In this document: piece after piece, positions 48,996 to 51,751 of the stretch
Layout of the letters: every line of letters begins with the position of its first letter
Position numbering within the stretch: the first letter of the stretch is position 1
DNA from: Eledone cirrhosa
Taxonomy: Eukaryota
Assembly: GCA_964016885.1 (NCBI GenBank)
Contig: OZ024740.1
Span: 270,754,001 to 270,818,000, forward strand
DNA length: 64,000 bases
Reading direction: 5' to 3'
The notes under the pieces: generated by a model
Seen by the model: only the letters and a program-made list of their open reading frames with translations
Told to the model about the DNA's origin: nothing
Database searches by the model: none
Position numbers and translations under genes: made by a program

Positions 48996-49665
48996 ATATA
49001 TGTATGTGTTATATATATATATATATATATATATATATATATATATATATATATATATATGTATATATTATATATATATATGTATATATTATATATATAT
49101 ATATATATATATATATATATATATATATATATGTATATATTATATATATATATATATATATATATGTATATATTATATATATATATATATATATGTATAT
49201 ATTATATATATATATATATATATATGTATATATTATATATATATATATATATATATATATATATGTATATATTATATATATATATATATATATATGTATA
49301 TATTATATATATATATATATATATATGTATATATTATATATATATATATATATATATATATATAAATTGAAACAAAATGAAAACGAAATTTCATTTCTCA
49401 CTCTTAGTATGGCACTTACTTAAATGTAAGTATGCATGTATACGTACATACATATATGTATACAGACGTAGAGTAGCATGCACATATATATATATATATA
49501 CATATATATATACATATGCATACAGGTACACATACATATATGCACGTATCAGTTTAGCGGCGCTAACGTCGCTTTGTTCGTTTGTAAACAAACTGAACAG
49601 CCTGAATTTATGCCATACGGTGTTAAGGCAACCACGTCACCTTTTTGTTCAACACTGACACAGGA

Positions 49666-49708
49666 ACGATGTACTAGTTTCAAGCTTGTTAGCTATCATC
49701 AGCACCGT
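49666..49708 (-). ncRNA. Minimal type I hammerhead (unit 1)
   Basis: ACGGTG-CTGATGA-TAGCT AACA AGCTT-GAAACTAGT-A-CATCGT; GUA site. Confidence 0.88.
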
Positions 49709-50133
49709 TTACCCATCTGCCAGATAGTTGAACGTTCGAAAGTATATACTTTCCTTATGAAAATTAACGGCTGAGCAGCCTAATTTGCATATTGAGTGAG
49801 TTAAATCGGTCAGGCATACCGAAAACGATAAATTGAAACAAAATGAAAACGAAATTTCATTTCTCACTCTTAGTATGGCACTTACTTAAATGTAAGTATG
49901 CATGTATACGTACATACATATATGTATACAGACGTAGAGTAGCATGCACATATATATATATATATATACATATATATATACATATGCATACAGGTACACA
50001 TACATATATGCACGTATCAGTTTAGCGGCGCTAACGTCGCTTTGTTCGTTTGTAAACAAACTGAACAGCCTGAATTTATGCCATACGGTGTTAAGGCAAC
50101 CACGTCACCTTTTTGTTCAACACTGACACAGGA

Positions 50134-50176
50134 ACGATGTACTAGTTTCAAGCTTGTTAGCTATCATCAGCACCGT
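50134..50176 (-). ncRNA. Minimal type I hammerhead (unit 2)
   Basis: Identical to unit 1. Confidence 0.88.
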
Positions 50177-50601
50177 TTACCCATCTGCCAGATAGTTGAA
50201 CGTTCGAAAGTATATACTTTCCTTATGAAAATTAACGGCTGAGCAGCCTAATTTGCATATTGAGTGAGTTAAATCGGTCAGGCATACCGAAAACGATAAA
50301 TTGAAACAAAATGAAAACGAAATTTCATTTCTCACTCTTAGTATGGCACTTACTTAAATGTAAGTATGCATGTATACGTACATACATATATGTATACAGA
50401 CGTAGAGTAGCATGCACATATATATATATATATATACATATATATATACATATGCATACAGGTACACATACATATATGCACGTATCAGTTTAGCGGCGCT
50501 AACGTCGCTTTGTTCGTTTGTAAACAAACTGAACAGCCTGAATTTATGCCATACGGTGTTAAGGCAACCACGTCACCTTTTTGTTCAACACTGACACAGG
50601 A

Positions 50602-50644
50602 ACGATGTACTAGTTTCAAGCTTGTTAGCTATCATCAGCACCGT
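50602..50644 (-). ncRNA. Minimal type I hammerhead (unit 3)
   Basis: Identical to unit 1. Confidence 0.88.
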
Positions 50645-51067
50645 TTACCCATCTGCCAGATAGTTGAACGTTCGAAAGTATATACTTTCCTTATGAAAAT
50701 TAACGGCTGAGCAGCCTAATTTGCATATTGAGTGAGTTAAATCGGTCAGGCATACCGAAAACGATAAATTGAAACAAAATGAAAACGAAATTTCATTTCT
50801 CACTCTTAGTATGGCACTTACTTAAATGTAAGTATGCATGTATACGTACATACATATATGTATACAGACGTAGAGTAGCATGCACATATATATATATATA
50901 TACATATATATATACATATGCATACAGGTACACATACATATATGCACGTATCAGTTTAGCGGCGCTAACGTCGCTTTGTTCGTTTGTAAACAAACTGAAC
51001 AGCCTGAATTTATGCCATACGGTGTTAAGGCAACCACGTCACCTTTTTGTTCAACACTGACACAGGA

Positions 51068-51110
51068 ACGATGTACTAGTTTCAAGCTTGTTAGCTATCA
51101 TCAGCACCGT
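51068..51110 (-). ncRNA. Minimal type I hammerhead (unit 4)
   Basis: Identical to unit 1. Confidence 0.88.
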
Positions 51111-51533
51111 TTACCCATCTGCCAGATAGTTGAACGTTCGAAAGTATATACTTTCCTTATGAAAATTAACGGCTGAGCAGCCTAATTTGCATATTGAGTG
51201 AGTTAAATCGGTCAGGCATACCGAAAACGATAAATTGAAACAAAATGAAAACGAAATTTCATTTCTCACTCTTAGTATGGCACTTACTTAAATGTAAGTA
51301 TGCATGTATACGTACATACATATATGTATACAGACGTAGAGTAGCATGCACATATATATATATATATACATATATATATACATATGCATACAGGTACACA
51401 TACATATATGCACGTATCAGTTTAGCGGCGCTAACGTCGCTTTGTTCGTTTGTAAACAAACTGAACAGCCTGAATTTATGCCATACGGTGTTAAGGCAAC
51501 CACGTCACCTTTTTGTTCAACACTGACACAGGA

Positions 51534-51576
51534 ACGATGTACTAGTTTCAAGCTTGTTAGCTATCATCAGCACCGT
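51534..51576 (-). ncRNA. Minimal type I hammerhead (unit 5)
   Basis: Identical to unit 1. Confidence 0.88.
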
Positions 51577-51751
51577 TTACCCATCTGCCAGATAGTTGAA
51601 CGTTCGAAAGTATATACTTTCCTTATGAAAATTAACGGCTGAGCAGCCTAATTTGCATATTGAGTGAGTTAAATCGGTCAGGCATACCGAAAACGATAAA
51701 TTGAAACAAAATGAAAACGAAATTTCATTTCTCACTCTTAGTATGGCACTT

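Follow-up and report, generated by a model that had tools for sequence, protein, structure and literature searches.

A hammerhead-bearing tandem repeat of Eledone cirrhosa carries the insertion signature of PLEs

A tandem repeat beside an assembly gap in the genome of Eledone cirrhosa raises the question of whether it is a local satellite or a mobile element and, if it is mobile, which enzyme moves it. The window analysed here is the whole stretch of 64,000 nt (assembly GCA_964016885.1, contig OZ024740.1, here C1, positions 270,754,001–270,818,000 of the forward strand). A preliminary description had reported at least five near-identical tandem units of 466–468 bp, which is borne out by TRF (period 466, 5.1 copies, 99% matches; Table 1). 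Units start at positions 49362, 49828, 50296, 50764, 51230 and 51696, giving five full units (466, 468, 468, 466 and 466 bp) plus a sixth represented by 56 bp, and the copy number is a minimum because the 200-N gap follows. The units are identical apart from one TA in an internal purine-pyrimidine/(TA)n tract, which accounts for all length variation of the array and which harbours nested insertions in other copies. The G + C content of the unit is 36%. The longest ATG frames in the tandem comprise 48 aa on the hammerhead strand and 98 aa on the opposite one, and both lie on the TA tract, in line with the earlier statement that the units have no credible ORF; the three self-complementary blocks quoted at that time are all in the sequence. 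The units had also been described as starting at (TA)n. This orientation has to be reversed, as on the ribozyme strand the array ends there, at its 3' (priming) end.

Table 1 Features of the retrozyme array and of related elements in the window
Feature	Position	Strand	Basis or remark
Tandem array forming one arm of a retrozyme insertion; the gap covers its other end	49362..51751	-	TRF, unit mapping
Type I hammerhead of the leftmost unit; cleavage predicted after GUA (between 49672 and 49671)	49666..49708	-	Helix I 6 bp, palindromic helix III
Type I hammerhead, second unit	50134..50176	-	
Type I hammerhead, third unit	50602..50644	-	
Type I hammerhead, fourth unit	51068..51110	-	
Type I hammerhead, fifth unit	51534..51576	-	
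Extended ribozyme domain (helix I, bulge and three stems, then a covarying hairpin), in every unit	49626..49745	-	
Tail of ~60 nt between the two fixed 3' ends; the array uses the long end, at 49362	49362..49423	-	
Internal alternating purine-pyrimidine/(TA)n tract, long predicted hairpin	49431..49548	-	
(TA)n target tract; an unrelated PLE on its far side shares it at the 3' end	48993..49364	.	
Assembly gap of 200 N, conceals the 5' junction and any inverted arm	51752..51951	.	
Diverged subfamily copy, ~1.2 units, short-site end	5964..6489	+	77-83% identical
Second copy of the same diverged subfamily (77-83% identical), ~1.3 units	59070..59702	+	Hammerhead 59434-59476; short-site end in (TA)n
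Inverted pair of terminal (pLTR) fragments with hammerhead, candidate driver PLE family	38431..38735	.	95-98% identical to the copy in L192

A hammerhead was found on the minus strand of all five full units, with CUGAUGA starting at 49702, 50170, 50638, 51104 and 51570. Its parts are helix I (ACGGUG/CAUCGU), CUGAUGA, a 4-bp helix II resting on U.U, GAAA, and ACUAGU followed by A17. Helix II opens with this U.U in place of a purine-pyrimidine pair, and helix III consists of 1 bp and a palindromic CUAG loop. In the predicted fold, three more stems extend helix I beyond a bulge of 3 nt. According to the accessible text of PMC4209133, canonical metazoan hammerheads of type I have a helix I of 6 bp, a helix II of 4 bp and a short palindromic helix III, for which a dimer is required. 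Judged by its sequence the unit has this form, from whose fully canonical version the U.U departs. The motif is present in 5/5 units, but the earlier designation as a canonical minimal hammerhead does not fully apply, given the U.U and the 1-bp helix III. As modelled, the ribozyme combines these two weak features. Among the retrozymes in the available text of PMC7229834, HHR_Amex1 shares the 1-bp helix III and the palindromic tetraloop with the unit and HHR_Amex2 shares the U.U at the base of helix II, whereas the unit combines both. The type I topology and the plain tandem units distinguish it from the plant LTR retrozyme, which has a type III hammerhead in LTRs, PBS/PPT and a 4-bp TSD.

Closure of helix III was computed to cost 5.4 kcal/mol in the monomer, while the intermolecular duplex gives −6.8 kcal/mol. 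In these models the palindromic helix III favours a dimer, which agrees with the dimeric hammerhead suggested before. The predicted circle of the unit is 67% paired (−152.4 kcal/mol), with pair probabilities of only 0.18–0.28 for the inner three pairs of helix I. The folding z-score is −8.5 with the TA tract and −3.5 without it; the other strand reaches −2.9. An Infernal hammerhead scan had been proposed in the preliminary description, and when the window was scanned with Rfam, no hammerhead family reached its gathering score, the best being HH9 with 18.5 bits (E 1.1). Sub-threshold matches to miRNA families in the same scan fall mostly on TA tracts.

Copies were counted by pattern search of the 3.0-Gb assembly. 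The exact 43-nt ribozyme yielded 9,990 matches (reversed control: 0), a degenerate ribozyme pattern 26,039 and a core-free hammerhead pattern 28,444. The genome-wide count with flank analysis that had been called for earlier returned tens of thousands of copies, and thousands of fixed ends fused to (TA)n. The term satellite applied at that time is appropriate for the tandem array, but the array is one insertion of a dispersed family with the 28,444 hammerhead-region matches given above. Subfamilies of the unit have periods of ~420–520 bp and are 77–90% alike. Two diverged copies lie in the window itself, and the one at 5964..6489 has a hammerhead (6232–6274) in which helix II carries C.A at its base and the cut site reads GUU. 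As side observations on other public runs, one further run from the same study as the public run mentioned below (88 Mb of contigs) contained almost only the CUGAC/AAUA variant, RNA and DNA being indistinguishable, and a run under another organism label yielded one 470-nt contig of depth 7, identical over 365 nt, for which contamination is possible.

The core is intact in 91 of the first 100 core-free matches. The changes in the other nine cores are scattered, A6G being found three times (two loci) and every other change once, and core position 7 varies by subfamily, with U in 36 and C in 64 of these matches. Since the core has only 10 positions and the subfamilies are 77–90% alike, its constancy is modest evidence. 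When nine loci were chosen by a motif outside the ribozyme, five had intact ribozymes and four had four different lesions, which fit decay after insertion, as expected. In a covariation alignment of 19 sequences, 94.7% of the cells pair and 7/33 pairs change on both sides; one helix I pair varies between GU (9), UG (6) and AU (3). The covariation score was reached by 0/500 shuffles and slid controls pair at 31–48%, although most rows were picked by the hammerhead pattern and are mutually related, and related sequences can beat shuffles.

The ends of the copies were analysed in a main sample of 96 segments from 50 loci and the window, the loci being clusters among the first 100 exact 43-mer matches, and in a second sample of 44 further loci from other subfamilies. 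All sampled loci stem from the first 70 Mb of contig C1. With the unit numbered from the cut site, 3' ends occur at two fixed sites, a short end near position 248–251 and a long end at 310, with ~60 nt between them; the windows used for scoring (290–311 for long, 240–253 for short) cover 8% of the unit. Long ends, mostly at 310, were found in 41 of the 96 segments and short ends in 34, while 11 ends fell in the internal TA tract, partly representing breaks at long tracts or nested insertions, and 10 elsewhere. Three long-type ends, as well as both short-type ends of the window, were scored as 'other', and one open end (L079) was left out. All 75 long and short ends abut (TA)n, and the array in the window ends at position 310 in (TA)n as other copies do. 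Tight patterns fused to (TA)n matched 1,527 long ends, 1,444 short ends and 3 cut sites genome-wide; a looser cut-site pattern matched 9 times. The 5' ends of the main sample are scattered, with 0/79 at the cut site, and eleven at unit position 385 stem from a palindrome there. Arms span from under 1 to more than 15 units. A target-site duplication is unreadable because both ends lie in (TA)n.

Arms on opposite strands follow a strict rule. Adjacent opposite-strand pairs in the main sample are joined 5' to 5' in 30/30 cases (p = 2e-9), and the inverted pairs comprise 16 of long with short, 0 of long with long and 0 of short with short (p = 1e-5). The 44 further loci gave 21/21 pairs joined 5' to 5', with 10 long-short pairs and again 0 of either other type; 25/78 segments of this sample were scored as 'other', partly from splitting against diverged references. 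For both samples together, 51/51 inverted arm pairs are 5' to 5' and 26/26 pairs with both ends classified are long with short. L085 was left out as a duplicate of L120, and two L117 pairs resemble one duplicated insertion. Convergent neighbours also exist via the TA tract, as in L057, where they are 37 bp apart and lie beyond the 30-bp cut-off for adjacency.

Hallmarks of Penelope-like retrotransposons (PLEs) given in the available text of bioRxiv 10.1101/2021.04.23.441226 are partial tandems, an inverted 5'-truncated copy and a tail of 30–40 bp on one end, with (TA)n targets in all Hydra families. In vitro, two internal start sites of RT delimit the PLE tail, and each of the two DNA strands is cut and extended (PMC11167929). 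The long and short ends in (TA)n together with the 5'-to-5' arms are the PLE tail signature. On sequence grounds, the unit belongs with the non-LTR retrozymes of animals, an already known class of non-autonomous retroelements, and PLE machinery very probably moves it through RNA. The end structure and the chimeras found among the copies support insertion into (TA)n by such machinery, which the preliminary description had put forward.

Hybrids were found at 4/50 loci. In L047, 1.8 units of the retrozyme pass, with no TA in between, into the RT region of a PLE truncated at its 5' side; this PLE terminates in (TA)n with its short end, and a long retrozyme end forms the inverted arm opposite. The short retrozyme end of L044 continues 5' into a piece of the frame of the same PLE, and the inverted arm is the long, tailed end of that PLE. 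L038 and L059 combine a long retrozyme arm with an inverted arm that is the short end of a second non-coding family, which has 21,315 exact 32-mers in the genome. All four hybrids obey the rule of long with short, by which independent insertions would not be bound. Direct fusions of retrozyme and PLE are thus present at 2/50 loci, while a tblastn overview of the 44 further loci, which did not proceed junction by junction, gave no such chimera.

The PLE of L047 and L044 is the candidate driver. It is represented by 1,381 exact copies of a 42-mer, and among 30 of its loci only the two chimeras contain the unit. L191 has an open frame of 821 residues with SDKT, RDD, a CNCRIKNKC linker (CxCx5C) and, at its C terminus, a GIY-YIG-type nuclease without CCHH; downstream of it lie a hammerhead with palindromic helix III and then two 3' ends in (TA)n ~85 nt apart. 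By its motifs this PLE fits the Hydra clade. It has 18 protein relatives that are 29–38% identical, and a relative in the window is 41% identical and gave no Pfam match. A blastn search (word 7, E 0.01) of four unit variants against the Hydra element or the rest of the window yielded no match, and unit and driver are alike only in the last few bases before (TA)n. This lowers the case that the unit is derived from this PLE, not that it is moved by it. The PLE adjacent to the array (46866–48254) was rejected as a parent, as it lies on the opposite strand and does not resemble the unit in DNA sequence. The window further contains a CCHH-type PLE that likewise has its end in (TA)n, and drivers other than the candidate are possible among the PLE families with such ends. 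Taken together, a PLE family of the Hydra type is probably a driver of the retrozyme, acting in trans.

Priming lies 250–310 nt downstream of the cut site and copying crosses it, so the template should be continuous there, as a ligated circle or an uncut multimer. The cleaved linear monomer was rejected as the main template on the counts given above for 3' and 5' ends at the cut site. Units within one arm differ by a median of 1/231 nt (19 loci), compared to 7 between loci (44 loci); the core is intact in 98/118 of the units used for this count. In the insertion L079/L080, one arm carries 15 ribozyme copies and the inverted arm 4, and 4 columns vary among its 17 whole units. Mixed arrays are also present, with 13 substitutions between neighbouring units in L052 and 7 in L074. 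L116 alternates A-B-A'-B with two types that differ at up to 17 sites, which a monomer circle alone cannot give and which therefore requires a dimeric template or later duplication and change.

As main template we slightly favour the circle. A serious competitor is uncut multimeric RNA, in which case the same element would be moved by the same machinery from linear read-through RNA; the ribozyme would be slow or gated by protein, circles would be by-products, and long arrays would result from multimeric RNA and later local expansion. The Poseidon PLE of Anolis gives weight to it, as hammerhead mutants inserted normally in vitro, uncut RNA was the main substrate, cleavage was dispensable and no reads ended at the cut site (PMC11167929). 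The weak ribozyme anatomy and the mixed and A-B-A-B arrays point in the same direction, and 1/9 Xenopus retrozyme dimers cleaved in vitro according to the accessible text of bioRxiv 10.64898/2026.07.22.740005. However, the core and the pairing of helix I are kept across subfamilies, arrays of at least 15 near-identical units with private variants (L079/L080, L034, L048, L069) are most simply explained by one small template, and circles were abundant in 3/3 animals tested in the part of PMC7229834 available. In our judgement, uncut RNA as the template is less likely than the circle.

It is improbable that the unit is instead a detached pLTR of a different autonomous PLE which would be its main driver, with the chimeras of the Hydra family as occasional cross-talk. 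Such an origin would be in keeping with the many PLE families in the genome, with the unit's own PLE-like paired ends and with Xenopus, where 24/57 retrozyme families match Repbase TEs at their termini, nearly all of them PLEs (accessible text of bioRxiv 10.64898/2026.07.22.740005). Yet neither the 50 loci nor a tblastn of the further loci revealed a common extension upstream or a PLE frame in register, a search in which a parent at less than ~1% of copies would be missed, and the blastn comparison with the Hydra element and the rest of the window gave no similarity. An ordinary DNA-level satellite or an assembly artefact beside the gap, with a chance or fossil hammerhead, is the least plausible explanation and highly improbable. 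The array does adjoin the gap, its units are identical outside the TA tract, Rfam calls no hammerhead and the TA tract contributes much of the folding z-score. These points are outweighed by thousands of dispersed insertions with fixed, strand-specific ends in (TA)n, by inversions of one polarity only and by comparable arrays assembled with both ends (L079/L080, L034, L046); contigs of a public sequencing run also cover the unit deeply, although this run may be the assembly's own source.

The best explanation overall, which we consider somewhat better than even, is a retrozyme that is cut into a circle and copied into (TA)n by a Hydra-type PLE. Hammerheads that pair between units through their palindromic helices III would cut read-through RNA of the array, and the monomer would be closed by a host ligase to a circle of about 467 nt. 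Judging from the scars, the RT/GIY-YIG protein of the PLE would then nick both strands of a (TA)n tract, and RT would start ~250 and ~310 nt past the cut site, with one start per DNA strand. Synthesis that passes over the ribozyme junction and covers between part of a unit and >15 units, and two cDNAs that meet 5' to 5', would produce the inverted insertion with a 60-nt tail on one end that is seen as DNA structure. As the four hybrid loci show, arms can derive from different RNAs, and RT may switch between retrozyme and PLE RNA. On a tentative reading, the copies may be direct genomic evidence of a retrozyme retrotransposed in trans by a PLE without detectable shared sequence, and every PLE insertion may be the work of two polymerases on two RNAs, one always starting at the long and the other at the short site, irrespective of the RNA that each carries.

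Non-LTR retrozymes were defined in coral, mussel and axolotl, where circles were shown and a partnership with PLEs was proposed from co-occurrence (PMC7229834, accessible text). As in the unit, these are non-coding tandems with one type I hammerhead each, a G + C content under 50%, no LTR/PBS/PPT seen, thousands of copies, a strongly folded predicted circle and co-occurring PLEs. The unit of 466 bp slightly exceeds their range of 150–450 bp, but lies within the 51–972 bp given in the available text of bioRxiv 10.64898/2026.07.22.740005 (Li, Clavereau & Pollet). In contrast, the two fixed 3' ends, the tail, the inverted arms, (TA)n targeting and the PLE chimeras are features of the present family that the accessible text of PMC7229834 does not report. 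Expression and circles were shown for the retrozymes of that study. The elements of Li, Clavereau & Pollet likewise are non-autonomous hammerhead repeats tied to PLEs, with monomers, dimers and multimers mixed. Their evidence is co-occurrence and pLTR homology, in contrast to insertion structure and chimeras here, and the unit has no similarity to the pLTR of the candidate driver. The same text favours local tandem expansion after insertion and is based on a sample without a mollusc.

Both Hydra-clade PLEs and the unit target (TA)n, form partial tandems, include an inverted copy truncated at its 5' side, bear the tail at a single end and have their hammerhead upstream of the 3' ends; DKT and the CxCx5C linker are common to these PLEs and the candidate driver (bioRxiv 10.1101/2021.04.23.441226, available text). 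Unlike Hydra-clade PLEs, the unit encodes nothing. The tails are longer here (~60 nt in the unit, ~85 nt in the driver) compared to the 30–40 bp of that source, and the driver unit measures ~3.9 kb compared to under 3 kb. In the Poseidon PLE of Anolis, two internal RT starts also define the tail, both AT-rich DNA strands are cut and extended, and a dimer is predicted; it is autonomous and acts on its own RNA, unlike the unit (PMC11167929). Strict pairing of long with short ends across two different RNAs was observed here and is not reported in the consulted main text of that paper.

The literature searched, with subscription papers and supplements outside its scope, contained no cephalopod retrozyme and no retrozyme-PLE chimera. 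The giant squid paper lists 235 Hammerhead_1 matches, given without analysis in its accessible text (PMC6962438), and the available main text of PMC9068888 contains neither 'ribozyme' nor 'Penelope'. Already published, as far as the accessible texts go, are mollusc non-LTR retrozymes (mussel, PMC7229834) and the link to PLEs (PMC7229834; bioRxiv 10.64898/2026.07.22.740005). To these, the present family adds unusually clear evidence of the insertion mode and of the mobilising machinery.

With this family, the count of hammerheads in one 3-Gb genome rises by about 28,000. The identity of the enzyme that moves animal retrozymes has been an open question since they were named, and a review from 2020 describes their sequences, in its accessible text, as lacking a motif that reveals the mobilising partner (PMC7761336). 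In Eledone cirrhosa the scars point to the machinery and the chimeras to a family, and the question therefore becomes testable with one protein and one RNA. Models of how PLEs build inverted, tailed insertions are constrained in a testable way by the rule of long with short, which also holds across different RNAs. If the RNA is a circle made by the ribozyme, the 821-aa RT/EN frame and the 467-nt circle would be a ready system for rolling-circle target-primed reverse transcription.

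The Penelope-like element (PLE) adjoining the array terminates at its 3' end in a (TA)n tract that is also used by the array itself (49362-51751); this PLE is unrelated to the retrozyme unit. A degenerate hammerhead-like motif lies near 48700-48735 within this element. An end sequence resembling that of the same PLE was observed near 28590-28800 on the minus strand.

The Hydra-type PLE of the window is 41% identical to the candidate driver, the PLE proposed as mobiliser of the unit, and a Pfam search of its frame yielded no match. Fragments of related PLE families are also present in the window (Table). 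The tRNA match, with a PLE fragment and a TA tract lying directly downstream of it, is possibly a tRNA-derived repeat. Very long TA tracts are numerous in the window, one of them being listed as an example.

Table. Features in the window and, where indicated, at sampled loci (L-numbers) outside it
Feature	Location	Strand	Details
Hydra-type PLE	8028-10385	+	785-aa frame without interruption
tRNA match	22882-22952	+	41.2 bits
Related PLE family, fragment	23271-23759		
Related PLE family, fragments	31770-33490		inverted pair
Related PLE family, fragment	37630-38457		
(TA)n-type tract	41100-44276		3.2 kb
Related PLE family, fragment	45420-46199		
PLE	46866-48990	+	462-aa open frame, RVT_1 and GIY-YIG (Pfam)
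Related PLE family, fragment	56244-56627		
Second (TA)n-targeting family	L038:3159-3203, L059:2535-2605, L131-L160		

Hammerhead-like motifs of other families were found in the window at 3307, 5485, 7748, 11365, 22246, 22607, 26676, 30413, 34844 and 54416. Those at 22246 and 54416 share one family, as do those at 7748 and 11365 and those at 30413 and 34844.

The second (TA)n-targeting family has inverted arms, with its two 3' ends spaced about 90 nt apart. The predicted fold resembles that of a type I hammerhead in which helix III is long and GUC is present, but the core reads UUGAUAA, UUGAGAA or CUGAGAA. A genome pattern search with a 32-mer of this family returned 21,315 exact copies.

Words of the retrozyme unit occur in 20 public runs with about 15 organism labels, one being a wastewater metagenome, which is probably due to carry-over of a very high-copy repeat.

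Outside the window, helix II of a diverged-subfamily copy (L125, C1:3821-3855) starts at its base with a Watson-Crick C-G pair instead of the U.U or C.A seen in other copies. In the array at L116:1843-3773, two unit types alternate (A-B-A'-B) with 17 variable columns, and units 2 and 4 are identical. This alternating array would be the product of a dimeric template or of a duplicated dimer.
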